Below are positions 5,429 through 58,900 of a DNA stretch of 64,000 bases, in pieces (position 1 is the stretch's first letter; every line of letters begins with the position of its first letter). The stretch comes from a virus. Location: positions 1-64,000 of the IMG/VR virus record IMGVR_UViG_3300019458_000002. One strand, 5' to 3'. The notes beneath the pieces are model-generated. The model searched no databases and was not told the DNA's origin. It saw nothing but the letters and a program-made list of their open reading frames with translations. A program made the position numbers and the translations under genes.

Positions 5429-6421
5429 ATGACAAAAGACGAACTAATTAAGAAGCTAACTGATTGGAAGGTAACAAACACCAAGGCCTACGACATTCTA
5501 GTCTCTGGAGTAGAGGACGCAAAGGTCCAAATCCTAAACGATGTCGTAAACCTTAGGAATACACTTATAGATGAGTGCGATAGTCTAGAGGTCAACGTCA
5601 AGACAGATACAGATGGCCTAAAGAATGCCATTCTGACTCAGAAGAATCTTTCGACTTCATCTCTAGAAACCCTAATTGCAGCTGCATCGGTCCCTGACCC
5701 CGTTGTAATTCCTCCTCCACCTCCCGTTGTTCAGGACAAGGCAGGAATCCTAGTTCCCGCTTACTTCTATCCAGGAGGTACAGGACTTACATATTGGAAT
5801 CAGGTTATTGCTGCTGCAAGCAAGGTGCCAATTTTTGCTGTTGCAAACCCTGGAAATGGACCAGGCACAAGTGTCAATGCTCAGTACACAGACGTTATCA
5901 AGCGAACAATTGCAGCTGGCGGCAAGATTCTAGGATATGTTTCAACAGTTTATGGAACTCGCCCATTAGCCGACATTCAAGCCGACATACTCAAGTGGAA
6001 GTCGTATTACGGAGTAATTAATATTTTCCTTGATGAACAGTCAAACAAGCTTGAACACGTTGCGTTTTACAGGGACCTAATCAAGTGGATTAAGACTCAG
6101 AGCCCTGGTGCGTATGTCGTTACAAACCCTGGCACAATTTGCCCTCAGGAGTATTATACGCAGGCTGCCCCAGACTCCATTCTTATCTCTGAAATGGCTG
6201 GGAATATTCTGGCTTTGCCCACATGGGCCAAGGATGCCCCCGACAAGTACTTTACAGGCATCTGCTATGCAACAGATGTTACTAAGGCGCTATCCCTTGC
6301 AAGTAGCATGAGAGCTATGGGAATCGGTCTCATCTATGTTACTGGAGACACCCTTTCAAACCCATGGGATACTCTTCCAACTTATTGGTTGCAATTGGTC
6401 GATGCAGTTGCTAAAGTATAA
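5429..6421 (+). CDS. Spherulin-4 / GH135-like putative glycoside hydrolase with N-terminal helical region
   Basis: AGGAG lies before the ATG. After a PPPPP linker, the C-terminal 230 aa reads LVPAYFYPGG...W..V...VANPGNGPG...GYVSTVYGTR...GVINIFLDEQ. I recognise this as the spherulation-specific family 4 pattern. Confidence 0.5.
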   Translation: MTKDELIKKLTDWKVTNTKAYDILVSGVEDAKVQILNDVVNLRNTLIDECDSLEVNVKTDTDGLKNAILTQKNLSTSSLETLIAAASVPDPVVIPPPPPVVQDKAGILVPAYFYPGGTGLTYWNQVIAAASKVPIFAVANPGNGPGTSVNAQYTDVIKRTIAAGGKILGYVSTVYGTRPLADIQADILKWKSYYGVINIFLDEQSNKLEHVAFYRDLIKWIKTQSPGAYVVTNPGTICPQEYYTQAAPDSILISEMAGNILALPTWAKDAPDKYFTGICYATDVTKALSLASSMRAMGIGLIYVTGDTLSNPWDTLPTYWLQLVDAVAKV

Positions 6422-7236: not shown

Positions 7237-8340
7237 ATGGCACTTAAAGTACAAGAATTCCTCCGTAATGGAGGAACTTTAGAGCAGCTGGAGTCCCAGT
7301 ATGGGATTGTTGCCAAACGAGGCAAGTATCTGTGGCTTGTACTTCTAAAGTACGACATTGGCTCGCCCATGGGCGAAGAGATTGTACAGGAGTGTCGGGG
7401 GCTCATCCTTGATTCTGTCCGTAACTGGGACATCGTTTCATTCCCCTATAAGAAGTTCTTCAATCATGGGGAAGGGCATGCTGCTAAAATTGACTGGAAC
7501 ACTGCCAAAGTCTTTGAAAAGCTGGACGGAAGCCTATGTACGCTGTACTGGCACCAAAATGAATGGCATGTTTCGACCTCAGGAACTCCTGATGCCAACT
7601 GTCTAATTAACTACACAGAAAAGACATTTGCCATGCTTTTTTGGGAAGCCTGGGAGAAGATGGGTTACTGCAATCCAGACAACCTTCTTCGTGACCACTG
7701 CTATATGTTTGAGCTTTGTGCCAAAGAGAATCAGGTTGTAGTTCAGCACGATGAACTGCGTCTAGTTCTACATGGCATTAGAGAAATAGGACCAGAAAGC
7801 TGTTACTTAGAGATACCTATCGAAGGGTATTCTAACGTTTTTGAGCTAGCACAGACTTACTCTCTTACTTCCATGAAAGAGTGCCTTGATGCTGCAGAGC
7901 AATTTAATCCGATTCAGCATGAAGGGTTTGTTGTAGTCGATGGGAATTTCAACAGAGTTAAGGTGAAGGGCCTTAAATATGTGGCCCTGCACCACTTACG
8001 CTCTGACTTTAGTGAGCGTCGCATATTGGACCTTGTCCGCTTGGGCGAAGTTCCTGAAGTAGTGTCTTATTTCCCTGAAATGGGAGATAAGATTCAGGAA
8101 ATCAAAGGTAAGTACGAGCGAATCATTGAGGAGTGCGCATCTGAGTTTGAGCGTGCTTCAAAGGAAGCTGCATTCTCTATCACGGACGACTACAAAGTGC
8201 GCCGAAAGAAGTTTGCTGCAATTGCTGGGAAAAGCAAGTACCGCAGTGTACTCTTTGCAAAATACGATAACAGGGATATCAAGGATTTTGTTGACAACTT
8301 GCAAGTTGATGGTATACTGAACTGGATAAGGGATATGTAA
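7237..8340 (+). CDS. ATP-dependent RNA ligase (Rnl1/tRNA-ligase-like adenylyltransferase)
   Basis: 367 aa. Covalent nucleotidyltransferase motifs: I FEKLDGSL, IV HEGFVVVD, V RVKVKG. Confidence 0.7.
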   Translation: MALKVQEFLRNGGTLEQLESQYGIVAKRGKYLWLVLLKYDIGSPMGEEIVQECRGLILDSVRNWDIVSFPYKKFFNHGEGHAAKIDWNTAKVFEKLDGSLCTLYWHQNEWHVSTSGTPDANCLINYTEKTFAMLFWEAWEKMGYCNPDNLLRDHCYMFELCAKENQVVVQHDELRLVLHGIREIGPESCYLEIPIEGYSNVFELAQTYSLTSMKECLDAAEQFNPIQHEGFVVVDGNFNRVKVKGLKYVALHHLRSDFSERRILDLVRLGEVPEVVSYFPEMGDKIQEIKGKYERIIEECASEFERASKEAAFSITDDYKVRRKKFAAIAGKSKYRSVLFAKYDNRDIKDFVDNLQVDGILNWIRDM

Positions 8341-8343
8341 ATT

Positions 8344-8625
8344 ATGACCTCTAAAGATTTTTGTTACTGGTTACAGGGTTTCTTTGAATTGAGCGGAGGA
8401 GAAAAGCCGCTGACAGCACCACAGGTTAAGCAAATCAAGGCTCACCTCAACATGGTCTTCAAGCATGAAATTGACCCGTCATATGGAGATAAAGTCCATC
8501 AGGCCACTCTTCAAGAAATTCACGATGCCATTACAAAGAAAATAGAAGAGGCTCCAAAGCCCCCTAAGAAAGACCAGCCAGATTTTAAACATCCGTTTGA
8601 CCACGATATTCTAATTAGATGCTAA
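8344..8625 (+). CDS. Hypothetical protein
   Basis: 93 aa (FCYWLQGFFELSGG...), same-strand packing. Confidence 0.55.
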   Translation: MTSKDFCYWLQGFFELSGGEKPLTAPQVKQIKAHLNMVFKHEIDPSYGDKVHQATLQEIHDAITKKIEEAPKPPKKDQPDFKHPFDHDILIRC

Positions 8626-8636
8626 AGGAGAAACTA

Positions 8637-8864
8637 ATGGAAAAGAAAACTGCCGCAGAGGCCGCTGGTTCATTGCTAGGACTTATTTTTATGTCTCTTA
8701 TTTGGGCATTAGCTTTCAAGCTGGACGTAGAATTCTGGACTAATCATCTTGGACACTTCAGGCACGTCTCTATCCTTCCTGCGCTTCTAGCTGGTTTCCT
8801 TTTGCCTGGCAAGGTAATGTACTCGGCCTCAGCATTTACGCTGTGCTATTGGCTACTGACGTAG
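8637..8864 (+). CDS. Small membrane protein
   Basis: I prefer ATG 8637 (AAGGAG 7 nt upstream) over the track start at 8619. Two hydrophobic segments. Confidence 0.5.
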   Translation: MEKKTAAEAAGSLLGLIFMSLIWALAFKLDVEFWTNHLGHFRHVSILPALLAGFLLPGKVMYSASAFTLCYWLLT

Positions 8865-8871
8865 GTCTGCT

Positions 8872-9276
8872 ATGCCAGATAAATATAGTGCCCTGTCCTT
8901 CCGAATGAAGGGCAGATATGGGAAGGCTGTAGGTTGTGGAGCCTCACGTCGAGCCTTCAGGCACAAGAACATAATCATAAAGGTTCCTGTAAATGAAGCA
9001 GGAGTTTGGGATAACCAAAAAGAGGCGAGGGTCTATAGGGATTTTAAAAAGGGCTTAAAGCCATTTTATGTCCCTGCAGCATGCAAACTCATAGTTGACA
9101 AACAGTCTGGATTGCCCATATTATTCATGGAAAGACTTATTCCATTCAGGAGAACCTGGAACATAAGTAGGCTACCAGAATGGGTTAACGACCTTTGTGA
9201 TGCAGGACTCGATTTCTTTCAAGTAGGAAAGTCCTTAACTGGCGAAATTAAGTGCTACGATTACGCAATGGAATAG
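8872..9276 (+). CDS. Hypothetical protein (weak resemblance to a protein-kinase N-lobe)
   Basis: 134 aa. GCGASRRAF, IIIKV, QKEARVY and LFMERL are spaced like the G-loop, VAIK, helix-C Glu and hinge. No HRD/DFG motif, so the function is left open. Confidence 0.45.
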   Translation: MPDKYSALSFRMKGRYGKAVGCGASRRAFRHKNIIIKVPVNEAGVWDNQKEARVYRDFKKGLKPFYVPAACKLIVDKQSGLPILFMERLIPFRRTWNISRLPEWVNDLCDAGLDFFQVGKSLTGEIKCYDYAME

Positions 9277-9277
9277 T

Positions 9278-9928
9278 ATGAGATACAAATATCCAAGAAC
9301 CTTTCATTTCCCTACGTCGCCAGGTGCAGACAAAAGCGACAAGATTATGGAGGACACATCTGCCTTTGAGCCAAAGAAGGATGTCGTAGTTACTCTCAAG
9401 ATGGATGGAGAGAACACAACCCTTTATCATGACTATTGGCATGCCAGAAGCATGAACCAAAACCAGCATCTGTCCAGGAACTGGTTGGCTGCCTTTCATG
9501 CTTCCTGGCAACACCTTATCCCGCCTGAAGTGCGTATATGCGGAGAAAACCTATATGCTAAGCACTCAATCCACTACAAGAATCTTGCCTCGTATTTCCA
9601 AGTCTTTGGAATCTGGGAAGGCGATAAATGCTGGTCTTGGGAAGACACAAAGCAGTTCTGTCAAGACCTTAAACTAGAAACTGTACCAGTCGTTTCAGTG
9701 CAAAAATGGCAAGGGGAAACAGCAATGTATTGGCTATTTAAGGGTTTAGTTGAGACAGGATATTGCGAGGATGAGGTAGAGGGTCTGGTTGTTAGGTTGG
9801 CTGAGGAAATTCCTGTTGACAAATGGACCGCAAATGTGGGAAAATTCGTGAGGGAAAATCATGTCTCCACTGACCAACATTGGATGACAAAACCTGTAGT
9901 AAAAAACGGCCTGAAAATCAAGGAGTAG
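9278..9928 (+). CDS. RNA ligase family protein (minimal Rnl2/Rnl5-like nucleotidyltransferase)
   Basis: 216 aa. N-terminal YPRTFHFPTSPG, motif I LKMDGEN, motif IV VEGLVVRL, motif V GKFVRENH. Confidence 0.65.
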   Translation: MRYKYPRTFHFPTSPGADKSDKIMEDTSAFEPKKDVVVTLKMDGENTTLYHDYWHARSMNQNQHLSRNWLAAFHASWQHLIPPEVRICGENLYAKHSIHYKNLASYFQVFGIWEGDKCWSWEDTKQFCQDLKLETVPVVSVQKWQGETAMYWLFKGLVETGYCEDEVEGLVVRLAEEIPVDKWTANVGKFVRENHVSTDQHWMTKPVVKNGLKIKE

Positions 9929-9932
9929 GAAT

Positions 9933-10193
9933 ATGAGCAAAAAGCAAATCACCGTATGCATCACCGACAAAGACATTGACACCGGCAAGCCCCGCAGCCA
10001 GCGAGCCTGCCCAATCGCTAAGGCAGCAAAGCGCCATTCCAAGAATGGCAATGTTCGTGTTACGAATGACACTATTCTACTGAATGGCGTTCGTCATCCG
10101 CTGCCCCCAAAGGCTCAGGACTTTGTTGTCGATTTCGACAGCTATCGCTTCGTTTACCCATTCAAGTTCCACTTGCTCGTCAGCAAGAAGTAA
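9933..10193 (+). CDS. Small CP[IV]A-motif protein, paralog 1 of 4
   Basis: 86 aa: ITVCITDKDIDTGKPRSQRACPIAKAAKRH...PPKAQDFVVDFD...YPFKFHL. Confidence 0.6.
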   Translation: MSKKQITVCITDKDIDTGKPRSQRACPIAKAAKRHSKNGNVRVTNDTILLNGVRHPLPPKAQDFVVDFDSYRFVYPFKFHLLVSKK

Positions 10194-10195
10194 TT

Positions 10196-10456
10196 ATGAA
10201 GAAGCAAATTACTATCTGTGTGACTGCCAAAGACATCAGTTCTGGAAAGCAGGGTAGCTACACCAAGTGTCCTATTGCTTTGGCTGCTAAGCGCCATTCA
10301 AATGGAGGTAAGATACGAGTAGGATACAAGTTCCTGACACTCAATGGTCAGCAGGTTCAGCTTCCACCACTTGCTCAGGACTTTGTTACTTGGTTTGATA
10401 CAGGATATAACTACCTTGTACATCCTTTCAAGTTTCACGTAAGAATCGAGAAGTAA
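10196..10456 (+). CDS. Small CP[IV]A-motif protein, paralog 2 of 4
   Basis: 86 aa: ITICVTAKDISSGKQGSYTKCPIALAAKRH...PPLAQDFVTWFD...HPFKFHV. Confidence 0.6.
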   Translation: MKKQITICVTAKDISSGKQGSYTKCPIALAAKRHSNGGKIRVGYKFLTLNGQQVQLPPLAQDFVTWFDTGYNYLVHPFKFHVRIEK

Positions 10457-10458
10457 AC

Positions 10459-10722
10459 ATGTCAAAGAAAATTACCGTTACAGTAACGGCAAATGACATC
10501 AAGGCCTCTAAAAAGGCACTGAAGTCTGGTGAATGGCGCACCACCTGTTGCCCCGTAGCTCAGGCTCTACGGAGGCGATGGCCTGATGCTGGGGTGGGAA
10601 CTACTAACTTCACAAAGGGCTCTGGGCTCTATCAAAGCCTGCCAAAGAAGGCTATGGATTTCATCTATGATTATGACCAAGGGGTAGCAGTAAAACCATT
10701 CCGATTTACACTATGGGTCTAA
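10459..10722 (+). CDS. Small CP[IV]A-motif protein, paralog 3 of 4
   Basis: 87 aa: ITVTVTANDIKASK...CCPVAQALRRR...PKKAMDFIYDYD...KPFRFTL. Confidence 0.6.
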   Translation: MSKKITVTVTANDIKASKKALKSGEWRTTCCPVAQALRRRWPDAGVGTTNFTKGSGLYQSLPKKAMDFIYDYDQGVAVKPFRFTLWV

Positions 10723-11006
10723 TGTCTGAGAACACAACATATCAAAATGTAAAGCTCAACCCAATGGATTGGCACATTGGGTTGACTCCTACACAAATCT
10801 CTGTTAAGAGTGTACGTAGAAGTGATGGTCGTACAGTTACCAAGACCGTTGATTTCAAGGACACTGGTGTTTCTGATGCAACGGCAAATATGTGGTTACT
10901 TTTAGAAGAACTAGCTTCCACACTTTTGATGCCCTTTGACACAGTTACAATGCCTGATGGCAGAATGTATATGGCGCTCGTCCTGTTCCCGCATCCTGAG
11001 GCTTAA
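10722..11006 (+). CDS. Hypothetical protein
   Basis: ATG 10722 overlaps the upstream TAA (TAATG); the track start is 10713. Unrelated to the flanking paralogs. Confidence 0.5.
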   Translation: MSENTTYQNVKLNPMDWHIGLTPTQISVKSVRRSDGRTVTKTVDFKDTGVSDATANMWLLLEELASTLLMPFDTVTMPDGRMYMALVLFPHPEA

Positions 11007-11254
11007 TGAAAATTCAGGTCACACAAGAAGACATTGAAAAAGGAGTACGAAATGTATGCGCCTGGTGTCCTGTTGCGCGTGCAGCAACCAGGGCCTTTGG
11101 AAAGCCAATGAAAGCCATGCGCTGGCGCCTAGAAGATGTGGCTACTGGTGAGTGCATTGAAACTCCGAAAGAGGTTAGTCGCTGGATGTTTAAGTTCGAT
11201 GACCATCAGCCTGTGGAGCCTTTTGAATTTGAGGTGTCTGATGGACTGGTATAA
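11006..11254 (+). CDS. Small CP[IV]A-motif protein, paralog 4 of 4 (divergent)
   Basis: 82 aa: IQVTQEDIEKGVRNVCAWCPVARAATRA...PKEVSRWMFKFD...EPFEFEV. Confidence 0.55.
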   Translation: MKIQVTQEDIEKGVRNVCAWCPVARAATRAFGKPMKAMRWRLEDVATGECIETPKEVSRWMFKFDDHQPVEPFEFEVSDGLV

Positions 11255-12281
11255 AGGAAATTTGCTTTGGCTTCCAGAGCGTACAATATTTCTGACCAAG
11301 GCAGGTTCCCATGCCTATGGCACCAACATTGAAACCTCAGATATTGACTTACGAGGTGTTGCTATTCCACCCCGTGAATACTTCTTGGGTTTCCTAAAGC
11401 AATTTGAGCAAGCAGAAAGCAAAGACCCTTACGATGCCGTAGTCTACGACATCAGGAAGTTCTTCAAGCTCGCGTCTGCATGCAATCCAAACATCATAGA
11501 GCTTTTGTACTGTGACCCAATGGACTGGATGGTTCCAAATCCATTTAGTAGTGCATTGTCTCCATGGATTCTCATTCTTCAGCACCGAGACCTGTTTCTA
11601 TCTAAGAAGGCCAGATATACCTTCAGTGGATACGCAATGGCTCAGTTGAAGCGTATCAAGACCCATCGTAGATGGTTGCTTAATCCTCCAGCCAAAAAGC
11701 CAGACCGTTCTGACTTCGGACTTAGTCCACACAATGCCACTCTAAACAAAGAGGACATGGCATTGATTGAAAGTCAAATCAGGCGAGTTGAAGACACGCT
11801 AGGTGGCGAAGGTTTCACTAAGGACCGCGTTCAAGAGAACGATGACGAGATAGTGGTTCAGGTCGCAACCAAGCTGAACCTAGCCAAAGACCTTTTCCCT
11901 TTGATTATTGCAGAGCGTAAGTATAGGGCTGCCAGTCATGAGTGGGACCAGTACACAAAATGGAAAGAAGAACGTAACCCTGTCCGCTCTGCCCTAGAAG
12001 CAAAATATGGATATGACACAAAGCATGCTTCTCACCTTGTTCGGCTAATGCGTATGTGTACTGAAATCATGGAAAGTGGTGTCGTCCATGTTAAGCGGCC
12101 AGATGCAGAAGAACTAAAGGCTATTAGAGGGGGTAGCTGGACTTACGACCAGCTTATGGAATGGGCCACTGAGCAAGACACAAAGCTCAATGACACATAT
12201 CAAAAAAGCAGCTTGCGAAATAGTCCTGACCTTGATAAGATAGACGTACTACTAGTTTCAGTTGTTGAAAGATTTTTATGA
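11241..12281 (+). CDS. RlaP-like (RNA-repair-associated) Pol-beta superfamily nucleotidyltransferase
   Basis: I prefer ATG 11241 (MDWYKGNLLWLPERTIF); the track start at 11136 overlaps the upstream gene. Motif AGSHAYGTNIETSDIDLRGV gives the GS...DxD signature. Confidence 0.6.
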   Translation: MDWYKGNLLWLPERTIFLTKAGSHAYGTNIETSDIDLRGVAIPPREYFLGFLKQFEQAESKDPYDAVVYDIRKFFKLASACNPNIIELLYCDPMDWMVPNPFSSALSPWILILQHRDLFLSKKARYTFSGYAMAQLKRIKTHRRWLLNPPAKKPDRSDFGLSPHNATLNKEDMALIESQIRRVEDTLGGEGFTKDRVQENDDEIVVQVATKLNLAKDLFPLIIAERKYRAASHEWDQYTKWKEERNPVRSALEAKYGYDTKHASHLVRLMRMCTEIMESGVVHVKRPDAEELKAIRGGSWTYDQLMEWATEQDTKLNDTYQKSSLRNSPDLDKIDVLLVSVVERFL

Positions 12282-12460
12282 CCTGTAAAAGGTGTGGTCA
12301 AAAATACAAATCTTCTAAAGAAAAATGGAAGGACGATTTGAAGGATGTTTCAATTAGCACTCGAAGGACTATCAATTCTATAATAGATTTATTAGATGCA
12401 TTAGAAAAAGGTGGCCCACAAATGTGTGAAACATGCCACAATTTTGTGTTTTCAGAATAA
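12278..12460 (+). CDS. Small zinc-ribbon protein
   Basis: 60 aa. CKRCGQ ... CETCHNF. ATGA overlap with the upstream stop. Confidence 0.5.
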   Translation: MTCKRCGQKYKSSKEKWKDDLKDVSISTRRTINSIIDLLDALEKGGPQMCETCHNFVFSE

Positions 12461-12472
12461 GAAAGGGTACCA

Positions 12473-13618
12473 ATGCAAGACAATAAGTGGTGGAATAACA
12501 TCAATGCGCCAGCATACCACTCTGAAGGTGGATATCTGGACCAGGCATTTTCTGAAATGGCCCTCTCCTACGGGACATTGAAGGACGAAAACCTAACTCT
12601 TTACTCTCGTTCGTGTGAGGGTCCTCTAAAGGAAGAATTTATCAAGACCTTCTTGGCTTCCTTCGAAGCAAAGATGGCTGAGAAGGGCGGTCGTTTGTTG
12701 TATGATACGGTGTGGGGACGCAAAGTCGAAGGCAATAGCCGCGTCTACCTCATCAAAGACGGAATCTGCAATTTTCGTTTCGAAGACAATGCCTTTGATG
12801 TTCGTTTTTCTTCCTACGACAAGGACTGGATTGAGGAATTTTGCGCTTGGCTGAAGCCCCTTGTTGGAGCTAAGGTCAGTCATGGCAAGGCTTACGTGAT
12901 TGTGTCGGGTGTTGAAGGGCCTTCTCTGACTTCCATTGGTGTGGCATCCGTGAATTTTGAACCAGGCAACTACACAAAGGACGTAACAGATGGCTTTCGC
13001 CATGTCATCACAGACCTGAAGACCGTGACCCCTAGTGGACGAGTGGCCATTCTCGATGGAGAACCAGGAACAGGCAAGACCTTCCTTATTCGGTCTCTAC
13101 TCAAGGAAGTTCCTGATGCTATTTTCATCATGGTGGCTGCAGGAGCAATTGAAATGCTCACTTCTCCAAACTTGGTTCCTCTGTTGATTCGTACAAAGCG
13201 TGAGTCAACGGTCCCCATTGTCTTCGTAATTGAAGACGCCGATGCCTGTCTGGTGCCACGCGCAGCTGACAATGTCAACGCAATCAGTACGCTACTGAAC
13301 TTCTCTGACGGTATCCTGGGTTCGCTTCTGGATATTCGTATCATTGCCACCACCAATGCCAAAATCACAGAGATTGATAAGGCAATACTACGGCCAGGCC
13401 GCCTTAGCCGTCGCATCGATGTGTCTCGCCTGAATCCATCTCATGCAGTCGAAGTCTTCAAGCGTCTGACCGGCAAGGACCCTGAAGCTGGCCAGCTTGA
13501 TGCTAAGCGTGGGAATACTTTGGCTGAGATTTACTCTATGGCTCGCGATAACGGATACGTGCCTCCTGCGGCTAACAACAAAATCGGCTTCCACAACGAC
13601 TTCCCTGACTTCGACTAA
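12473..13618 (+). CDS. AAA+ ATPase
   Basis: 381 aa. Walker A GEPGTGKT, Walker B VFVIEDAD, sensor/Arg region RPGRLSRRIDV. Unassigned N-terminal domain of about 190 aa. Confidence 0.8.
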   Translation: MQDNKWWNNINAPAYHSEGGYLDQAFSEMALSYGTLKDENLTLYSRSCEGPLKEEFIKTFLASFEAKMAEKGGRLLYDTVWGRKVEGNSRVYLIKDGICNFRFEDNAFDVRFSSYDKDWIEEFCAWLKPLVGAKVSHGKAYVIVSGVEGPSLTSIGVASVNFEPGNYTKDVTDGFRHVITDLKTVTPSGRVAILDGEPGTGKTFLIRSLLKEVPDAIFIMVAAGAIEMLTSPNLVPLLIRTKRESTVPIVFVIEDADACLVPRAADNVNAISTLLNFSDGILGSLLDIRIIATTNAKITEIDKAILRPGRLSRRIDVSRLNPSHAVEVFKRLTGKDPEAGQLDAKRGNTLAEIYSMARDNGYVPPAANNKIGFHNDFPDFD

Positions 13619-13806
13619 TGGCAAGGGACCTTGTCCGCATTAGGAATGTCTGTCCAAAATGCGGAGCCCAGAGATTCCTACTCCACAAAAACTATGGAGA
13701 CACTTTAGAAGAGTGGAATGCTTACGTAAAAAGACAGAAGGAAAAGGAGCCTACACGTTACGCCTGCGACAGATGTACGAAGGTTCCGACTTATGATGAC
13801 GAATAA
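13618..13806 (+). CDS. Small zinc-ribbon protein
   Basis: 62 aa. CPKCGAQ ... CDRCTK. TAATG overlap. Confidence 0.5.
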   Translation: MARDLVRIRNVCPKCGAQRFLLHKNYGDTLEEWNAYVKRQKEKEPTRYACDRCTKVPTYDDE

Positions 13807-14191
13807 ACGCAAAATAGCTATTGTAGGCAGTCGTGACTTCGCCAAACTAGAACTGGTGGATGCGCTCATTTACAAACTGAACAAAGACGAGCACGAAATA
13901 GTGTCTGGAGGCGCAGTAGGAGTAGATACTCAGGCTCAGAACACAGCTATTCTAAATGGCTTTGAAGTTCAGATATTCTACCCAGACTGGAGCCAGGGCA
14001 AGGGTGCAGGTATTGCCCGAAATAGCGACATTGTGGCTTACGCTGACGATGTTTACGCCTTCTATGATGGCAAAAGCAGGGGCACGCTAGATAGCATGAG
14101 AAAGGCTGTAGCAGCAGGCAAGCTACGCCGGGTCTTCAACGAACATGAAGAAGCTAAAGATATTATTCCTAGCCCTGACCCTGTCGTGTGA
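13793..14191 (+). CDS. SLOG-superfamily (DUF2493/DprA-like Rossmann) protein
   Basis: 132 aa: IAIVGSRDF...IVSGGAVGVDTQAQ...GAGIARNSDIV. Confidence 0.55.
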   Translation: MMTNKRKIAIVGSRDFAKLELVDALIYKLNKDEHEIVSGGAVGVDTQAQNTAILNGFEVQIFYPDWSQGKGAGIARNSDIVAYADDVYAFYDGKSRGTLDSMRKAVAAGKLRRVFNEHEEAKDIIPSPDPVV

Positions 14192-17721: not shown

Positions 17722-18183
17722 TTATAGCCCGCTTTCCCTTAAGCGCTTATCTGCCTCGTACAAGATTCCTTTCTTGTTAGTCCACTCTTGGGATTCATGC
17801 TTCACATCAGCCTTACCTGTTTTTACGAAAAAGTAGGCGTGCAGGAGTTCATGGCTAAAGGCCGTACGACTAAAATTAGCTTTCTTTGGCCACGCTATCA
17901 TTGTCGCAAAGGGCCAAAACAAACCATTCACGCAATGGTCTTTTTCCTTGCTAAGCGGATTCCAGAAGCTGTTGCAGTCATTGCAAGTTAAATCAGGGGC
18001 TTCAACCCAAATAATCTTTGGTGGCAAGCCCTGCATGCCATAGACCTCGTTCCAGACTATTTTGATAGCGTCTTCTTGTCCAGGCTTAACGCTATCATGA
18101 AGGCCCTTGCCTCTAGGTGAAGTCCTGCCTATGACAAATCCAAGGTATAAACAAAAAGCGGCTAACAGTGCTATAGCAATCAT
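17722..18183 (-). CDS. Membrane-anchored HExxH metallopeptidase-like protein
   Basis: 153 aa. N-terminal TM segment MIAIALLAAFCLYLGFVIG. Motif FSHELLHAYF. Resembles 47133..47735. Confidence 0.6.
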   Translation of the reverse strand: MIAIALLAAFCLYLGFVIGRTSPRGKGLHDSVKPGQEDAIKIVWNEVYGMQGLPPKIIWVEAPDLTCNDCNSFWNPLSKEKDHCVNGLFWPFATMIAWPKKANFSRTAFSHELLHAYFFVKTGKADVKHESQEWTNKKGILYEADKRLRESGL

Positions 18184-18201
18184 CTACAGCTAAGATTGGA
18201 G

Positions 18202-18315
18202 TTGACCCGGAAGGAATCGAACCTTCAACCGCTAGAGTGTTTAATCTTGCTGTTGATATTCCATACGGAATACCGTTGGTTTATGTCTAATGCTCTACCA
18301 TTGAGCTACAGGTCA
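18202..18315 (-). tRNA. tRNA-scaffold gene (114 nt) with about 42 extra nt in the anticodon loop; anticodon unresolved
   Basis: TGACCTG-TA-GCTC-AATGGTA-GAGC-A-TTAGA-[49 nt, including hairpin GGTATTCC-GTAT-GGAATATC]-TCTAG-CGGTT-GAAGG-TTCGATT-CCTTC-CGGGTCA-A. Parsed by hand. Confidence 0.55.
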
Positions 18316-18324
18316 ATAAAATTG

Positions 18325-18394
18325 AGCCCCAGGCAGGAGTTGAACACTGCGACCTCCGGTTTATTTCCGGTGCTCTACGCTGAGCTACTGAGGC
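18325..18394 (-). tRNA. Compact tRNA-scaffold gene (70 nt) with non-canonical anticodon loop AAAUAAA
   Basis: GCCTCAG-TA-GCTC-AGCGTA-GAGC-ACCGG-AAATAAA-CCGGA-GGTC-GCAG(T)G-TTCAACT-CCTGC-CTGGGGC-T. No U33, and the D loop is only 6 nt. Confidence 0.5.
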
Positions 18395-18413
18395 TTAAGC
18401 TAGATTAGGATTG

Positions 18414-18519
18414 AGTCCTAGGTTGGATTCGAACCAACGCCCTTCAGCTAAAGGCTGACGCTCTACCTTTGTGGTTTTCATTAATCTAGAATCTTTGCCA
18501 CGGCCTGAGCTACTAGGAC
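18414..18519 (-). tRNA. tRNA-scaffold gene (106 nt) with about 35 extra nt in the D loop; anticodon unresolved (loop CUUUA)
   Basis: GTCCTAG-TA-GCTC-[43-nt D loop with GTGG...CCAC helix]-GAGC-G-TCAGC-CTTTA-GCTGA-AGGGC-GTTGG-TTCGAAT-CCAAC-CTAGGAC-T. Confidence 0.55.
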
Positions 18520-18523
18520 ATTG

Positions 18524-18644
18524 GCGGGGCAGAGAGACTTGCACTCTCGCATGGCGGCACCATTAGCATTATTTTGCTGGATGTATTCGTTAAACGGAAT
18601 ACAGTTTTTGCAAGCCGCTGCCGTACTATCTTGGCTATGCCCCG
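18524..18644 (-). tRNA. tRNA-Cys(GCA)-like gene (121 nt) with a 48-nt insertion directly 3' of the anticodon loop
   Basis: CGGGGCA-TA-GCCA-AGATAGTA-CGGC-A-GCGGC-TTGCAAA-[48 nt]-GCCGC-CATGC-GAGAG-TGCAAGT-CTCTC-TGCCCCG-C. The TTGCAAA loop is canonical for Cys. Confidence 0.6.
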
Positions 18645-18650
18645 CGTATT

Positions 18651-18923
18651 TTAATTTTCTCTACACTCTATTCGCCACTCATTTGACCAACGCTTGAATT
18701 TTGCACCTGAATCCAGGCAGTTATCGAGGTAATTGAATTCACCTACGACAGTCTTTTTACCTGAGGCTGTTGTAACGATAAGCTTCCATGGAGGCTCTGG
18801 AACTGCTATTCCAAAATCTCCTCTGAGATAAGGGGTTGCGCAACCCGCAAACATGCTACCTACCAAGAAGATAAAGAACAATAGCAAAAACAGCCAGAAG
18901 GCCCTTATGACTTTATTTGCCAT
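18651..18923 (-). CDS. Putative lipoprotein
   Basis: 90 aa. Signal peptide ending in the lipobox FAGC (LVGSMFAGCA). Confidence 0.6.
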   Translation of the reverse strand: MANKVIRAFWLFLLLFFIFLVGSMFAGCATPYLRGDFGIAVPEPPWKLIVTTASGKKTVVGEFNYLDNCLDSGAKFKRWSNEWRIECREN

Positions 18924-21719: not shown

Positions 21720-22208
21720 ATGAAGCTCTTATACGCAGGGTCCTTTGACCCACTACACTACGGTCACTGCAGCATCATTGACCGGGCTCGTTTTATGGGT
21801 GATTTGACTGTAGGAATCGCTCGTAATGAGGCCAAGAATCCATTTTTGTCCATTGGAGCCCGACATTACAACTTATCAAATATGTATAAGGGTGCAGCGG
21901 AAGTTGTCATGCTTCCAAGCGGTCAATTTACGGGAGCCTGGGCTAAGGCTCAAAAGTTTGACTATTTAGTTAGGGGAGTTCGGGGTCCAAGGGATGTCGA
22001 GGATGAGCTAGCTCTTGTTCACTTTAACAAAGAGAACTTCTATATGGAGACAATTCTGCTACCATGCGAAGAAGCATGTCGTCAAATTTCTTCAACGGCC
22101 ATCAAGGCTATTATTCAGAACGAAGGCTGGGAACGAATCATTATGGACTATGTTCCAGACTCAGTCGCTACCCTTATAAAAGAAAAGATTGAAAGAGAAA
22201 GACCATGA
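21720..22208 (+). CDS. Phosphopantetheine adenylyltransferase (CoaD)-like nucleotidyltransferase
   Basis: 162 aa. YAGSFDPLHYGH, DYLVRGVRG..D.E.E and ISSTAIK are collinear with bacterial PPAT as I remember it. Confidence 0.65.
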   Translation: MKLLYAGSFDPLHYGHCSIIDRARFMGDLTVGIARNEAKNPFLSIGARHYNLSNMYKGAAEVVMLPSGQFTGAWAKAQKFDYLVRGVRGPRDVEDELALVHFNKENFYMETILLPCEEACRQISSTAIKAIIQNEGWERIIMDYVPDSVATLIKEKIERERP

Positions 22209-52015: not shown

Positions 52016-52102
52016 TCCCTGGTCATCTAGCGGAACAAGACCAAGTTCGGATACTAAATCCGTTTCCTTGGAACGTTGGTTCGAATCCAACCTAGGGAGC
52101 CA
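52016..52102 (+). tRNA. tRNA-scaffold gene (87 nt, CCA encoded) with an extended or interrupted anticodon arm; anticodon unresolved
   Basis: TCCCTGG-TCA-TCT-AGCGGAACA-AGA-CCAAG-TT-CGGAT-ACTAA-ATCCG-TTTC-CTTGG-AAC-GTTGG-TTCGAAT-CCAAC-CTAGGGA-G-CCA. Confidence 0.55.
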
Positions 52103-55227: not shown

Positions 55228-55303
55228 GCTTGCATACGCTCAGTTGGTAGAGCATCTGGAGTGATGATTCAGAAGGTCGCGGGTTCGAGTCCCGCTGCGA
55301 GCA
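55228..55303 (+). tRNA. tRNA-Ile(GAU)-like gene with atypical geometry
   Basis: GCTTGCA-TAC-GCTC-AGTTGGTA-GAGC-A-TCTGGA-GTGATGA-TTCAGA-AGGTC-GCGGG-TTCGAGT-CCCGC-TGCGAGC-A. The connector is 3 nt and the anticodon stem 6 bp. Confidence 0.6.
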
Positions 55304-55315
55304 CAAGGGATAAAT

Positions 55316-55591
55316 ATGGAAGAAAAACATACAAAAGTAGTCAACATTCATTTTCCTCTTACACCAACAGAACTAGCTATTGGTATCTCAGAGCTTCGGT
55401 ATGATGGGCTACAGAAATTTCTAGAGGTGTTAGCAGATAAAATCAGTGATGATGCCGCCCAAGATTTAAGCAAAGGACGGGTAAAGCTTTCCTCCTCTCT
55501 TAAAGAAGCATCTACTTGCTTAAGTGATGCTGCGGCACGCATTGCTGATGCCTGGGAAATTTGCGAACCTTACGAGACAAAAAATGACTGA
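55316..55591 (+). CDS. Hypothetical protein
   Basis: 91 aa, between the tRNA and the Nudix gene. Confidence 0.5.
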   Translation: MEEKHTKVVNIHFPLTPTELAIGISELRYDGLQKFLEVLADKISDDAAQDLSKGRVKLSSSLKEASTCLSDAAARIADAWEICEPYETKND

Positions 55592-56093
55592 CCAAGAAGA
55601 ATGGCCTAAGGCTGCACTTAGCGTAGATATTGTTTGTTTGAAGCTTACAGCTGGTCCAGGCTCACAACCCGAGGTTCTACTAGTAAAAAGGCGGAATAAG
55701 CCATATAAAAACATGTGGGCACTGCCTGGTGGATTCGTGGACATTGCAACAGGCGAAACAACAGAGCATGCCGCCGTCAGAGAGTTAGGTGAGGAAACTG
55801 GGGTTTGGGGAATTCATGAATCTGAAATGAAGCTCTTTGGAGTTTACTCTGAACTCAATAGAGACCCTAGGCATCGCACAATTTCAGTTGGTTATTATTT
55901 GACTGTATCAAGCGCCCTTGGTATCGTGGCTGGTGATGATGCAGCGGAGGCAAGCTTCTTCCCTTTATCTTTACCCACGATAAGGAAAGCTATGCCTCTA
56001 GCCTTTGACCATAACAAGATTTTAAATGATGCAGTTCAGACGCGGCTATATATGAATTGTAACGGTGTCTGGCAAATGAAGGAGCTACCATGA
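55584..56093 (+). CDS. Nudix hydrolase (ADP-ribose pyrophosphatase-like)
   Basis: I prefer ATG 55584 (MTDQEEWPK...). Nudix box GGFVDIATGETTEHAAVRELGEETGV. Confidence 0.75.
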   Translation: MTDQEEWPKAALSVDIVCLKLTAGPGSQPEVLLVKRRNKPYKNMWALPGGFVDIATGETTEHAAVRELGEETGVWGIHESEMKLFGVYSELNRDPRHRTISVGYYLTVSSALGIVAGDDAAEASFFPLSLPTIRKAMPLAFDHNKILNDAVQTRLYMNCNGVWQMKELP

Positions 56094-57487
56094 AGGACAA
56101 TCTGATTATTGACACAGATAGCTATAAGGCAGGACACTTCCTACAGTGGCCGCCTGGCACAACTAAAGCTGTTGCGTATCTGGAAGCCAGGGCTGGCTCC
56201 ATGTACGACTACACGCTGTTTGGGGGCCTCCAGATTCTGCTTATGAGAGACCTGGCTGGTGCCGTAGTCACTGAAGCTGATGTTGATGAAGCCCGCCTGT
56301 TCTTTGAACAGCATGGCGAGCCATTCCCGAGGGATGGCTGGATGAAGATTGTAGACAAGTGCGGGGGCCGTCTGCCTGTTCGAATTCGCGCGGTTCCTGA
56401 AGGAACTGTAGTGCCCATTAACAATGTGCTAATGACTGTGGAGTCACTAGACCCTGAACTGTACTGGCTGCCTGGTTGGCTTGAGACCAAGCTTATGCGC
56501 CTTTGGTATCCTATCACGGTTGCAACCCGTAGCTTTGCCTGCAAAAAGGTCATCAAGTCTTTCTTGGATAAGACCGCCGATAACACTGACGCGGAAATTA
56601 ATTTTAAGCTCCATGACTTTGGTGGAAGAGGAGTGTCCAGCCGAGAAAGTGCTGGCTATGGGGGCTGCGCACATCTTTTCAACTTCATGGGTAGCGATAC
56701 CTGTGAAGGAGTTCACTATGCCAACACCTACTACAACAACCACAAGATGTCAGGCTATTCCATTCCCGCAATGGAACACTCCACAGTTATCTCCTGGGGT
56801 CCAGAGCATGAAAGAGATGCATTCGAGAACATGGTTCGTACATCGAAGGGCCATAACCTGATTGCTTGCGTATCCGACAGCTACGACATCTATAATGCGG
56901 TAGCCAATATCTGGGGAGACCCCAATATGGTTGAGTTTTTGAAACTCCATAAGAAGACTGTGGTCATTCGTCCAGACAGTGGAGACCCACAGGTTGTCAA
57001 CTTTAATATTCTAAGGATTCTGGAAGAGAAGGTTGGTATGACCCTTAACACAAAGGGCTACAAGGTTCTGCCTGATTGCTACCGCCTGATTCAGGGCGAT
57101 GGTAATAACACAGAAAAGGACATTGCAGATGTTCTAGGCTATCTCGAAAGGGCTGGATACAGCGCTTCCAATATTGCCTTTGGCATGGGTGGAGGACTTC
57201 TGCAGAAGCTTGATAGGGACACACAGCGCTTTGCCTTCAAGACCAGTCAACTGGTTGTGGACGAAGAACGCAGGGATGTCTGTAAGACACCCGCTACCGA
57301 CCCTTCCAAGGCCAGCAAGAAAGGCTACCTGGATTTGGTAAAGATGGATGGACAGTATTACACTGTCAAGGTGCTTGAGAACAAGCCCCACAATGAATCT
57401 CAACTTGTGACAGTCTTTGAAAACGGCAAAATCATGAAGGAGTACAGCCTTGAAGAAGTCCGTAAAACAGCTGCCTCCAGTCTGTAG
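56090..57487 (+). CDS. nadV: Nicotinamide phosphoribosyltransferase (Nampt)
   Basis: 465 aa. NLIIDTDSYKAGHF at the N-terminus, with length and layout typical of NadV. ATGA overlap with the Nudix gene. Confidence 0.85.
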   Translation: MKDNLIIDTDSYKAGHFLQWPPGTTKAVAYLEARAGSMYDYTLFGGLQILLMRDLAGAVVTEADVDEARLFFEQHGEPFPRDGWMKIVDKCGGRLPVRIRAVPEGTVVPINNVLMTVESLDPELYWLPGWLETKLMRLWYPITVATRSFACKKVIKSFLDKTADNTDAEINFKLHDFGGRGVSSRESAGYGGCAHLFNFMGSDTCEGVHYANTYYNNHKMSGYSIPAMEHSTVISWGPEHERDAFENMVRTSKGHNLIACVSDSYDIYNAVANIWGDPNMVEFLKLHKKTVVIRPDSGDPQVVNFNILRILEEKVGMTLNTKGYKVLPDCYRLIQGDGNNTEKDIADVLGYLERAGYSASNIAFGMGGGLLQKLDRDTQRFAFKTSQLVVDEERRDVCKTPATDPSKASKKGYLDLVKMDGQYYTVKVLENKPHNESQLVTVFENGKIMKEYSLEEVRKTAASSL

Positions 57488-57674
57488 ATATAACAAAGAG
57501 CACAGGGGTGGCAGCACCCTCTGTTATCTGTATTGTTTTACTGAGGACGAACCCGCATTCTGGTTGGACTGGAAAAAGAATAAGTTTGAAGCAGTTCAAG
57601 TAGACCCACAGACTGGGATAGCATATACTAGAGACTTAAACCATCCAATCGAAGAAGACGAATTTGTTCGATGA
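57450..57674 (+). CDS. Doubtful small ORF between nadV and the NMNAT gene
   Basis: The only in-frame start is TTG 57450, inside nadV. The C-terminal half looks protein-like, and its stop overlaps the next ATG (ATGA). Confidence 0.3.
   Translation: MKKSVKQLPPVCRYNKEHRGGSTLCYLYCFTEDEPAFWLDWKKNKFEAVQVDPQTGIAYTRDLNHPIEEDEFVR
57505..57539 (+). terminator. Hairpin + T-rich tract after nadV (possible intrinsic terminator/attenuator)
   Basis: GGGGTG-GCAG-CACCCT followed by CTGTTATCTGTATTGTTTT. Confidence 0.35.
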
Positions 57675-58900
57675 AGCTACATCCATGGAAGGCGCTTAAA
57701 ATGAAAGCTGGCGGTGCATACAAGTTCTTTTCGGACCTAAGGGATAAAGGTGACACAAACCTCTACATTGCAGCTGCAGGAGGTGCCTCCGACCTACAGG
57801 GCAGCGCACTCCTAGTGCCTGGAGCAAGTTCCTACCTTGTAGGTGCAGAACTTTTGTACTCCACTCACACATTCGACAGATTTATTGGCCATACTCCACG
57901 CAATTACTGCAGCCAGTATGCAGCAATTGAGCTTGCAATTTCAGCTTTCATTAGAGCAAAGATGGATTGTGCATATGACCTCAAAGTCAAGCCCAAGAAG
58001 AGCATTGGCTTAGGTATAGCCTGCGCATTGACCGCATTCAAGCATAGACGCGGAGAAAATAGAGTCCATGCCGCCGTAGTTTCTGACTACGGATGTTACA
58101 TTGTGTCTCTGACTCTTCCAAAGGAAGAAGACCCAAATCTCTCTGTGGATGACCGATTTTACGCAAGAATTGGAGAAAATCACGATTGCGATGACCTTGG
58201 TCTTGAGCTTCTTGATTTTATTGTTAATGGCGGCGACTTCAAGGCTGATAAGATTGAAGACACCGAACTCCTGGAGCACATCATGGACAGGCCCACATTC
58301 GTTTTCGATGGACGCCGTTGTCCTGCTCCAGAAGTTAAGGCTGCTCAGGACAATATTATGCTGTATCCAGGGTCTTTCAATCCTGCGCATGAAGGTCACA
58401 AAAGGACGGCTGAAAGTGTCATTGAGGCTGGGTTTGCTGGTGAAGTCATTCCTTACATTACAATTGACCCACCACATAAGGCCCCCATTAAACCCATTGA
58501 CCTTCTAACCAGAATATCGTATCTTAAAGTTCAGCTACCCACCAATACAGTGCTGGTTAGCAAAGGAGACCCGTTGTTTGTTGATAAAGCCGCACGTTGG
58601 CCAGGAGTTACCATGGTCATGGGCTCTGACACACTTAACAATGTCATGGACCCTAAGTACGGTCTGTCTCCAGAAGAAGTTTGTAGGCAGTTCAATACAC
58701 ACAAGACATTTCTAATTGTGGTCAAGCGTCCGGGGCACGAGTACCGTATAGATTTAAAGCCCCTTGACACGCCTGTTCAGTATTTAACTGGCTACAACAA
58801 TCTCGAAACCTCATCTACGCAGATTAGGAAGGGCTGGGAGCCCTGCGAGGAATGTCACGTAATTGGAAATCACAAAATGGACTGTGGGAGAAATAGATGA
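57671..58900 (+). CDS. Fusion: CinA/PncC-like (NMN deamidase-like) N-domain + NMN/NaMN adenylyltransferase C-domain
   Basis: 409 aa. N-domain IAAAGGASDLQGSALLVPGASSYLVGAELLYS. C-domain YPGSFNPAHEGH and ETSSTQIRKG. Confidence 0.65.
   Translation: MKLHPWKALKMKAGGAYKFFSDLRDKGDTNLYIAAAGGASDLQGSALLVPGASSYLVGAELLYSTHTFDRFIGHTPRNYCSQYAAIELAISAFIRAKMDCAYDLKVKPKKSIGLGIACALTAFKHRRGENRVHAAVVSDYGCYIVSLTLPKEEDPNLSVDDRFYARIGENHDCDDLGLELLDFIVNGGDFKADKIEDTELLEHIMDRPTFVFDGRRCPAPEVKAAQDNIMLYPGSFNPAHEGHKRTAESVIEAGFAGEVIPYITIDPPHKAPIKPIDLLTRISYLKVQLPTNTVLVSKGDPLFVDKAARWPGVTMVMGSDTLNNVMDPKYGLSPEEVCRQFNTHKTFLIVVKRPGHEYRIDLKPLDTPVQYLTGYNNLETSSTQIRKGWEPCEECHVIGNHKMDCGRNR

Follow-up and report, generated by a model that had tools for sequence, protein, structure and literature searches.

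A conserved folded RNA arm on tRNA-like RNAs of large phages

The common interpretation of tRNA arrays in phages is that they serve as codon supplements or provide spare tRNAs against tRNA-cutting host nucleases. Non-decoding tRNA-like RNAs in phage tRNA clusters are also known, and the species 1 and species 2 RNAs of T4 (rnaD and rnaC) are stable, non-decoding RNAs of ~120-140 nt that are co-transcribed and co-processed with tRNAs. Against this background, the element considered here, referred to as the module, is best described as a new structured RNA motif on phage tRNA-like RNAs. It was found in a stretch of 64,000 nucleotides (positions 1 to 64,000 of the IMG/VR record IMGVR_UViG_3300019458_000002, in the following "the window"), as an insert in two of four tRNA-shaped units that are clustered on the minus strand between two small open reading frames (ORFs). 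Coordinates are window positions unless another sequence is named. W1-W5 denote units 1-5 of the window, LA-LF and K1-K4 denote the units of two related sequences, L003 and L178, respectively, and V denotes units from other IMG/VR contigs. In a blastn search of 50,697 phage records, no sequence similarity to the T4 RNAs was found for the cluster or for a V unit.

Several other systems invite comparison. The tRNA-shaped genes of murine gammaherpesvirus 68 (TMERs, tRNA-microRNA-encoded RNAs) likewise carry extra conserved hairpins, with the tRNA shape supplying expression and processing, and the same division of labour may apply to the module. TMER hairpins, however, are located downstream of a complete tRNA-like part and are cut off as microRNAs, whereas the module is located inside the cloverleaf and would be expected to be retained; we know of no microRNA pathway in bacteria, the hosts of the module phages. 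Archaeal bulge-helix-bulge (BHB) introns resemble the module in being short inserts (tens of nucleotides) in the anticodon loop or the D arm that are related across the tRNA genes of one genome. Non-canonical sites occur, and paralogous introns have moved between tRNA genes in Thermoproteales. In contrast to BHB introns, the module lacks hBHBh' junctions, no splicing endonuclease gene was seen among the window ORFs scanned, and the carrier is a tailed phage related to a Myxococcus phage; moreover, the module is conserved as exons are, and its removal restores no consistent anticodon loop. Group I introns also interrupt bacterial-type tRNA anticodon loops and occur in phages, but they comprise at least ~200 nt with a P1-P9 core, whereas the module insert comprises 42-48 nt with a single hairpin and an internal loop. 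YrlA RNAs, the partners of Ro60, are similar to the module RNAs in that they are non-decoding, combine a tRNA-like part with a separate protein-binding helix, and have RNA-repair genes adjacent. YrlA ends in a Ro-binding stem, whereas the module RNAs end in an acceptor stem. Against the YrlA model (RF02553, cut-off 69), the window reaches 18.8 bits at best and L003 24.4 bits, with both matches spanning two adjacent units, and no Ro60-like gene is found in the 84 kb that were read for gene searches (the window and 10 kb per side, of a contig of 171.7 kb). Engineered tRNA scaffolds, finally, keep the acceptor, D and T arms, which serve processing and stability, and have a cargo grafted on the anticodon stem, as in the units described here; such scaffolds are artificial, whereas the present arrangement is natural and conserved, with one specific module as its cargo.

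The module is a homologous folded RNA element under purifying selection. A preliminary description, made from the sequence alone, had proposed that the inserts of units 1 and 4 are homologous anticodon-loop insertions. Both inserts are present as quoted there, on the minus strand at 18278..18237 (42 nt) and 18606..18559 (48 nt), and have a block of ~35 nt in common that consists of an AAC-N-GUAUUCC hairpin followed by CAGCAA-R-AU. The local alignment of insert 1 and insert 4 has a score of 24, which is reached by 2 of 5000 shuffles and by none of 10,000 random window segments; the alignment of W1 with LA, the L003 ortholog of unit 4, has a score of 33, which again none of the 10,000 segments reaches. 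In the 64 kb, these two sites are the only matches to the composite pattern GTATTCCG..GAATA..CAGCAARAT, with 0 expected, and a repeat search independently returned the pair 18265-18277 / 18594-18606 (family D4). The constituent motifs are not rare on their own: CAGCAARAT has 5 matches (2.3 expected) and GTATTCCGT with one mismatch has 9 matches (7.2 expected). Two covariance models recover both copies, R1 with 59.8 bits for W1 and 59.4 bits for W4, R2 with 47.0 bits for W4 and 35.2 bits for W1 (18243-18287). The proposed homology is hence confirmed. The designation as an anticodon-loop insertion fits only in a loose sense: unit 1 is a strong tRNA match, but unit 4 has no Rfam tRNA match, and its apparent GCA anticodon is part of the module's own conserved GCAAAAA. 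Two further proposals did not survive comparison with random sequence. The degenerate loop copy seen at the 3' end of each insert is at chance level (p 0.08-0.21; for W1, W4 and LA, respectively, 3187, 1510 and 4296 of 20,000 shuffled tails reach the score), and the similarity of the unit 3 D-loop insert to the inserts of W1, W4 and LA does not exceed chance (1014, 3684 and 7596 of 10,000 random segments).

From 5' to 3', the module consists of GC, AAAAA plus 4-6 nt, a hairpin of 7-8 bp with a loop GUA, GUAA, GUAU or longer, and GCAA. The GC of GCAAAAA and the GC of GCAA constitute the closing pair set; for W4 and LA, RNAalifold pairs the UGC of UGCAAAAA with the GCA of CAGCAA. The family is defined as GCAAAAA, 4-6 nt, a covarying hairpin AUYCYGU..GRAU, exactly 7 nt, and GCAA. 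GCAA follows the G-R-A-U of the hairpin's 3' arm by exactly 7 nt in 12 of 12 aligned sequences, and the hairpin covaries. Within five copies, 97.5% of the cells are paired, 4 of the 8 pairs are changed on both sides, and the covariation score is reached by 0 of 500 shuffles. For 12 sequences across all lineages the values are 97.9% and 0 of 500, and pairing falls to 22-56% if the partners are slid by 1-3 columns. The strict conservation of sequence and spacing is compatible with recognition by one factor, as had been suggested. Unit 4 contains a second small hairpin at 18560-18580. No Rfam family covers the module (cmscan of 18100-18750 and of 181 nt of a V unit).

Related phages were reached via homologs of the flanking proteins. 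L003, whose Clp protease is 72% identical by BLASTP (74% in the MAFFT alignment), has a syntenic cluster of six units. The first of these, LA, is the ortholog of unit 4 and has the same insert, with the 5' part TGCAAAAACTGTATTCCGT and the 3' junction AATGGTGCCGCCATGCGAG identical to W4. L178, with a flanking protein that is just 51% identical, has four units. K2 is unit 2-like, K1 has a unit 1-type body that folds as a cloverleaf carrying the module, K3 is a canonical tRNA whose anticodon is CAU, and K4 is orthologous to unit 4. A covariance model built from W1, W4 and LA only finds K4 with 45.7 bits (E 2e-9) and K1 with 30.1 bits (E 2e-5), E-values that are rough for models with such short calibration. 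Since both unit types already carry the module in L178, the module was present in both before the lineages split, and the two window copies are old paralogs rather than the result of a recent jump. The unit 1 type has been lost or replaced in L003, where the last unit, LF, lacks the module although the gene downstream of the cluster is 74% identical. Between W4 and LA, the loop and insert are identical at 44 of 51 positions (86%) and the remaining RNA at 57 of 65 (88%), compared to 42-59% identity at the third codon positions of five flanking genes of the window and L003. The insert is therefore as constrained as the tRNA-like body. The body shows three compensatory pairs, in the acceptor and T stems, and the insert is more conserved than either of these stems. 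No relatives were obtained from IMG/VR by protein searches with the 337-aa ORF, with the Clp protease or with an alignment of Clp sequences, and P0002 and P0003 are not syntenic.

The module also occurs in phages without such relationship. A first strict pattern (GTATTCCG..GAATA..CAGCAARA/T) gave chance hits only in IMG/VR, JGI metagenomes and GTDB (single, mostly in coding sequence, none with tRNA-like flanks), because it was too specific to the copies of the window and L003. The pattern rebuilt from five copies, GCAAAAAN{4,6}ATYCYGTN{2,5}GRATNNNNNNNGCAA, matches 20 IMG/VR loci. Seventeen of these belong to one RNA family of ~128 nt, the V units, with 12 distinct sequences that begin with GGAGACA... 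and end with ...CCACCA; the remaining three are a stand-alone copy in L203 and two chance hits in coding sequence. V units are located within very large phage tRNA arrays (up to 35 tRNAs per 10 kb) that include suppressor anticodons CUA and UUA. The match of a V unit to the Rfam tRNA model (35.5 bits) includes a 69-nt insertion. In these RNAs the module is an additional arm that follows the D arm and precedes a distinct anticodon-like arm, AACU-CUGUAAA-AGUU or CCCU-CUGUGAA-AGGG, and the acceptor, T, anticodon-like and module helices all covary. The L203 copy (31.4 bits) consists of a stem GGGGC/GCCCC that encloses the module, followed by GCCA, directly 3' of a tRNA-Asp-like gene. In the stretches compared, the V phages share no proteins with the window. 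From the W1-type, W4-type, V-type and L203 occurrences, unrelated phages have the module in at least four RNA contexts, and in each of them it is joined to helices of a tRNA-like or acceptor-like kind. The notion of one insertion family is supported by the search with covariance models and patterns that had been proposed for it, which adds LA, K4, K1, 17 IMG/VR contigs and one stand-alone stem-loop. As the wider family was found by one exact pattern, its true spread and range of scaffolds are underestimated. A blastn search of the cluster and a V unit against the 50,697 phage records returned generic tRNA similarity only.

Some side observations concern the same arrays. In the V loop (L184-L201, e.g. 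L188 1168-1296), U33-G34-U35 is invariant and position 36 is A or G, that is, Tyr-type GUA or His-type GUG; the gene ahead of the L203 stand-alone copy has the loop CUGUCAC (GUC). Both tRNA-guanine transglycosylase and colicin E5-type nucleases recognise UGU as their motif, a hint at a decoy or a modification link. ARAGORN reports over-long tRNAs in several of the IMG/VR arrays (L185, L186, L192, L194, L197), including 'tRNA-Ile(UAU)' calls of 92-95 nt alongside suppressor tRNAs (CUA, UUA). In L203 (4462-4562), the anticodon loop of a 101-nt 'tRNA-Thr(UGU)' contains a hairpin insert of ~27 nt. Phage tRNA genes may carry inserts more often, and of more kinds, than this one module represents.

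The carriers themselves deviate from canonical tRNAs to different degrees (Table 1). In unit 1, a stem UUAGA/UCUAG encloses 49 nt where an anticodon loop of 7 nt is expected. The Rfam tRNA model (RF00005) assigns it 54.7 bits, with a 48-nt insertion replacing the anticodon loop, and the minimum-energy fold retains the acceptor, D and T arms. Unit 4 has an acceptor stem of 8 bp, a D stem of 3 bp, a GCGGC/GCCGC stem around the module and the T loop UGCAAGU. Its cloverleaf is isoenergetic with the minimum-energy fold, and there is no Rfam tRNA match even at E<=10. Above the gathering threshold of 29 bits are unit 1, unit 2 and the V unit; unit 3 has a partial match only (25 bits). Default ARAGORN calls none of the four cluster units, its sole call in the window being a tRNA-Ile at 55228. 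If introns are allowed, unit 4 is called as tRNA-Cys(GCA) with a 48-nt intron, unit 1 as 'Phe', and the distant unit 5 as 'Pro(CGG) with a 14-nt intron'.

Table 1. Coordinates of the tRNA-like units, the module copies and selected genes in the window.
Feature	Position	Strand	Description
Unit 1 (W1)	18202..18315	-	tRNA-like; canonical acceptor stem, D arm and T arm
Module core, unit 1	18244..18277	-	AAC-G-GUAUUCC GUAU GGAAUAUC AA CAGCAAGAU; hairpin 18255-18274
Unit 2 (W2)	18325..18394	-	tRNA-like, without module; Rfam tRNA 39.8 bits
Unit 3 (W3)	18413..18519	-	tRNA-like; D-loop insert of ~37 nt at 18468-18504
Unit 4 (W4)	18523..18645	-	Cloverleaf-shaped RNA, not a canonical tRNA
Module, unit 4	18570..18614	-	(U)UGCAAAAAC, hairpin UGUAUUC..GAAUACA (18582-18603), UC, CAGCAAAAU
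Unit 5 (W5)	52016..52102	+	tRNA-like, far from cluster, without module; Rfam tRNA 26.6 bits
RNA-repair block	7237..13618	+	Pfam hits; 5-11 kb from cluster
Rnl1-type RNA ligase	7237-8340	+	Pfam
Second RNA ligase, PF09414	9278-9928	+	Pfam
RlaP nucleotidyltransferase	11136-12281	+	Pfam
AAA ATPase	12473-13618	+	Pfam
NAD salvage: NUDIX, NAMPT, cytidylyltransferase/NMNAT-like; ATP-dependent DNA ligase; second NMNAT-like; PTH2	55524-60072; 61529-62227; 21720-22208	+; -; +	

The module-bearing RNAs of the window (units 1 and 4) cannot present a conserved anticodon and, judged from their sequences, would not decode. Excision of the insert from W4 yields the loop UUGCAAU. GCA is preceded by one nucleotide in LA, by two in W4 and by three in K4 (LA is short of one U of 'UUGCAAA', and K4 has AAUGCAAAAAAA), so there is no common anticodon register across the three orthologs. 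With introns allowed, ARAGORN calls neither LA nor K4, and no split of the W1 loop yields U33. The combination expected of a canonical decoding tRNA with an intron, a U33 loop of 7 nt and the same anticodon in orthologs, is not found.

The neighbouring units (2, 3, LB, LC, LD, LF and K2) are not decoders either. The anticodon arm of unit 2 comprises just 15 nt (CCGG-AAAUAAA-CCGG). The same type of loop (7 nt, N-N-AUAAA, in a 15-nt arm) is observed in LD (L003 1808-1877) and K2 (L178 1557-1627), and W1 has GA-C-AUAAAC directly ahead of the module, similar to the W2 loop; W1 and W2 also share GTAGAGCA..ATAAACC (repeat family D2). With A, U, U or C at position 33, the AUAAA loop of these four units is ruled out as a normal anticodon loop. 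The 4-bp stem is changed on both sides in LD (CCCG-AUAUAAA-CGGG) as compared to W2, and the K2 arm (CCGG-UUAUAAA-UCGA) keeps 3 of 4 stem pairs with one mismatch. The pattern of the W2-type loop has no match in IMG/VR. The predicted anticodon arm of unit 3 has 15 nt (UCAGC-CUUUA-GCUGA), the arm of LC has 12 bp, and LF has a 6-bp stem with a 4-nt loop.

Units 3 and 5 show several further peculiarities. Unit 3 and its ortholog LB (L003 1594-1696) both have a hairpin insert in the D loop. The two hairpins differ; the closing helix is changed on both sides (GUGG/CCAC and GCGA/UCGC), and the inserts have UUCUAGA in common and are otherwise different. Their anticodon arms are 14-15 nt long with unrelated loops and stems changed on both sides (LB: CCUGC-UAUC-GCGGG), and UAAUCUAG recurs in the spacer following unit 3 and LB in both phages. 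The T arm and acceptor stem of unit 5 are nearly identical to those of unit 3, and CCA is encoded. The anticodon arm of unit 5 is extended by an inner 5-bp hairpin (CCAAG-UU-CGGAU-ACUAA-AUCCG-UUUC-CUUGG), and its 3' end is located 2 nt ahead of the ATG of a DUF6915 ORF. The tRNA-Ile(GAU) at 55228-55304 (+) has G32 and G37 in its anticodon loop; Ile tRNAs normally carry A37.

The best reading of these data is that the insert is a conserved folded RNA arm, neither an intron of a known type nor a selfish insertion. On this reading, tRNA-shaped scaffolds serve the phages to present the arm. It replaces the anticodon loop in units 1 and 4 and in the orthologs of these units, and in the other phage lineage it is an extra arm between the D arm and the anticodon-like arm. 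The tRNA shape would provide stability and processing (RNase P, RNase Z, CCA addition), and the arm would stay in the mature RNA, acting as a specific binding site for one protein or RNA partner. We regard it as roughly an even call that the module is such a retained recognition arm on non-decoding scaffolds. A more specific proposal, that the module is the protein-binding arm of an undescribed class of phage non-coding RNAs that forms an RNA-repair or anti-defence particle with Ro60/TROVE-like proteins, RNA ligases or RlaP, is put forward tentatively, as the less probable of the two. Such a class would be spread over unrelated large phages with tRNA arrays. Another possible role of the module RNAs is that of decoys for those host nucleases whose target is the anticodon loop of tRNAs.

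With respect to a partner, Ro60/TROVE proteins work with tRNA-like Y RNAs and are encoded beside RNA-repair genes. In 8 of the 17 V loci, a gene for a protein with DUF2828 and DUF7788 is found within 0.4-7.4 kb of the unit. This protein belongs to phrog_850 ('RNA-binding protein'), a PHROG that also contains a protein annotated as TROVE in Myxococcus phage Mx1. Among cultured phages, Mx1 is most closely related to the window phage, and the gene for its TROVE protein lies inside the Mx1 tRNA region. A search of PDB sequences with the DUF2828 protein gave no match. The jumbo-phage ROT/TROVE proteins are described 'with a tRNA-like partner' (PMC7824862). On grounds of co-location, the phrog_850 Ro60/TROVE-like RNA-binding protein is the most concrete candidate partner; the module RNAs would then be analogues of the tRNA-like Y RNAs, working with the RNA-repair enzymes of the phage. 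These enzymes are themselves possible partners. The RNA-repair block of the window is syntenic in L003 (6876-14168), and RlaP has been described as acting in the repair of tRNA ends (PMC12776372, PMC7824862). A DprA/SLOG-like gene is found beside the block, at 13793-14191.

Several observations weigh against a partnered arm that stays in the RNA. No Ro60, TROVE or phrog_850 gene is found in the window, in the 10 kb on either side, in L003 or in L178; Mx1 has a TROVE gene and a tRNA region without a module copy; and the co-occurrence with phrog_850 may only reflect a shared location in tRNA arrays. The two phage RNA ligases and RlaP also fit a pathway of cutting and rejoining. In addition, W1 lacks the 5' GC of GCAAAAA that is present in all other copies and hence the closing GC pair, and in the fold predicted as best for W1, which is 7.5 kcal/mol better than the cloverleaf, CAGCAAGA is paired with the 3' strand of the W1 stem. 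Because of the missing pair and the favoured rival fold, W1 may be a degenerate copy.

The main rival to a retained arm, which we consider unlikely while giving it more weight than any other alternative, treats the insert as a new, non-BHB kind of tRNA intron that is spliced by proteins. An endonuclease of phage or host origin would cut the RNA at either end of the insert, and the Rnl1-type or PF09414 ligases of the phage, together with end repair by RlaP, would rejoin the parts into working tRNAs. The position of the insert within or beside the anticodon arm fits this idea, as does the canonical 37/38 site at which ARAGORN places the unit 4 intron, and genes for two RNA ligases and for RlaP are located near the cluster in the window phage as well as in L003. 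A separate, well-formed 7-nt loop (CUGUAAA/CUGUGAA) with U33 and A37 is retained in V units, CCA is encoded, and a V unit minus the extra arm would be a tRNA of normal size. However, the same excision is out of register in LA and K4 and gives no U33 loop in W1, the 14-16 nt arms of units 2, 3, LB and LF are not convertible to anticodon arms, and the insert is conserved as exons are, above the acceptor and T stems, unlike typical introns. Neither a splicing endonuclease (EndA) nor a polynucleotide kinase-phosphatase (Pnkp) is found among the ~50 window ORFs scanned with Pfam or PHROGs.

Introns of known types were considered and rejected. A BHB motif has two 3-nt bulges with a helix of 4 bp between them, which place both splice sites. 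When the cluster was scanned exhaustively for h-B-H(4 bp)-B-h', no such motif coincided with the insert boundaries of units 1 and 4; unit 3 has a weak hBH only, with h'=0, that would leave a D loop of 16 nt. A group I intron is incompatible with inserts of only 42 and 48 nt, and cmscan of 18100-18750 at E<=10 returned no intron family. An archaeal virus with archaeal introns, suggested by the D-loop insert and the PTH2 gene, was rejected in view of the negative BHB scan and of the relationship to a Myxococcus phage, the nearest relative in culture.

As compared to splicing, we consider it clearly less probable that a small mobile or duplicative insertion (MITE-like, i.e. resembling a miniature inverted-repeat transposable element, or retro-inserted) disables tRNA genes and that the cluster is a decaying remnant of a large Mx1-like tRNA array. 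This idea would fit the four aberrant units here as compared to at least 26 canonical tRNAs in the syntenic Mx1 region, the occurrence of the module in at least three unrelated scaffolds, and the variation in number and kind of units among the window, L003 and L178. The preliminary description had likewise allowed for an insertion that spreads and had proposed a check for short flanking duplications. In shuffling tests, flank repeats are at chance level (p 0.16, 0.08 and 0.21), and terminal inverted repeats are absent. Covariance models find no copies outside tRNA-like RNAs in the window, its relatives and the flanks, and the scans of metagenome and GTDB contigs yielded nothing beyond the chance hits mentioned above. 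The module and its scaffold are equally conserved. Because the stems of the module and of the carrier RNAs show purifying selection and compensatory changes, the insert appears to be neither selfish nor neutral in its evolution.

A small self-cleaving or processing element that cuts the transcript, yielding tRNA halves or ligase-ready ends, is somewhat less probable still. The small size, the strict conservation of the unpaired GCAAAAA and GCAA and of the 7-nt GRAT-GCAA spacing (the latter in 12 of 12 aligned sequences), and the nearby RNA ligase genes would be in keeping with a ribozyme. The architecture, however, is a simple hairpin with an asymmetric internal loop; inspection reveals no hammerhead, twister, pistol, hatchet or hepatitis delta virus (HDV) core, and there is no Rfam ribozyme match at E<=10 in either the 651-nt window segment or the 181 nt of a V unit. 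By eye, likeness to preQ1, ToxI, signal recognition particle RNA, ribozymes or group II domain 5 was also considered, and none has Rfam support. A mimic of a CRISPR repeat (an RNA anti-CRISPR) was rejected: in 185,579 GTDB genomes the hairpin pattern has 58 matches, all of them single and in scattered taxa, and arrays are absent. That the inserts resemble each other by chance in A/T-rich loop sequence, as might be supposed from short motifs that are not rare when taken singly, has next to no probability left and is already refuted by the random segments and by the two new copies that the three-copy model found in the independently retrieved L178; a composite pattern expected 0 times also speaks against it.

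The phage that harbors the cluster is known from a 171,731-bp contig of an ENA metagenome. The window encodes a tail sheath and a Clp-type prohead protease; the tail sheath of Mx1 is 45.6% identical over the full length. The syntenic region of Mx1 contains, besides its canonical tRNAs, a transfer-messenger RNA (tmRNA) and the TROVE/Ro60-like protein. The tmRNA (L176, OR576727.2; 7647-8024, Rfam 117.7 bits) is not annotated in the record and overlaps a coding sequence annotated as 'Hef-like endonuclease'. A weak YrlA-like match (6170-6298, 32 bits, E 0.002) also falls within this tRNA region, ~12 kb upstream of the gene for the TROVE-domain protein, and several unannotated tRNAs are detected by Rfam. 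The NAD salvage, DNA ligase and PTH2 set of the window is typical of the counter-defence cargo of large phages; PTH2 is an archaeal/eukaryotic-type peptidyl-tRNA hydrolase. Directly beyond the high end of the window (L204 1-6372), the contig has genes for a protein of 1850 aa, for two PI3/PI4-kinase-like proteins and for a member of the Gad2 family; Gad2 is an anti-Gabija factor.

We note that default tRNA finders miss the module genes, and that the intron-allowing mode assigns spurious anticodons to them. Whatever the function of the arm, the motif pattern and the covariance model provide a practical annotation marker for viral metagenomes. For the phages themselves, the proposed reading means that some 'tRNA genes' of phage arrays would be scaffolds for one conserved arm, not decoders. 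If the arm indeed binds a Ro60-like protein or RNA-repair enzymes, it would be a natural counterpart of the engineered 'tRNA scaffold' and would offer a testable handle on phage RNA repair and the evasion of tRNA-targeting defence.

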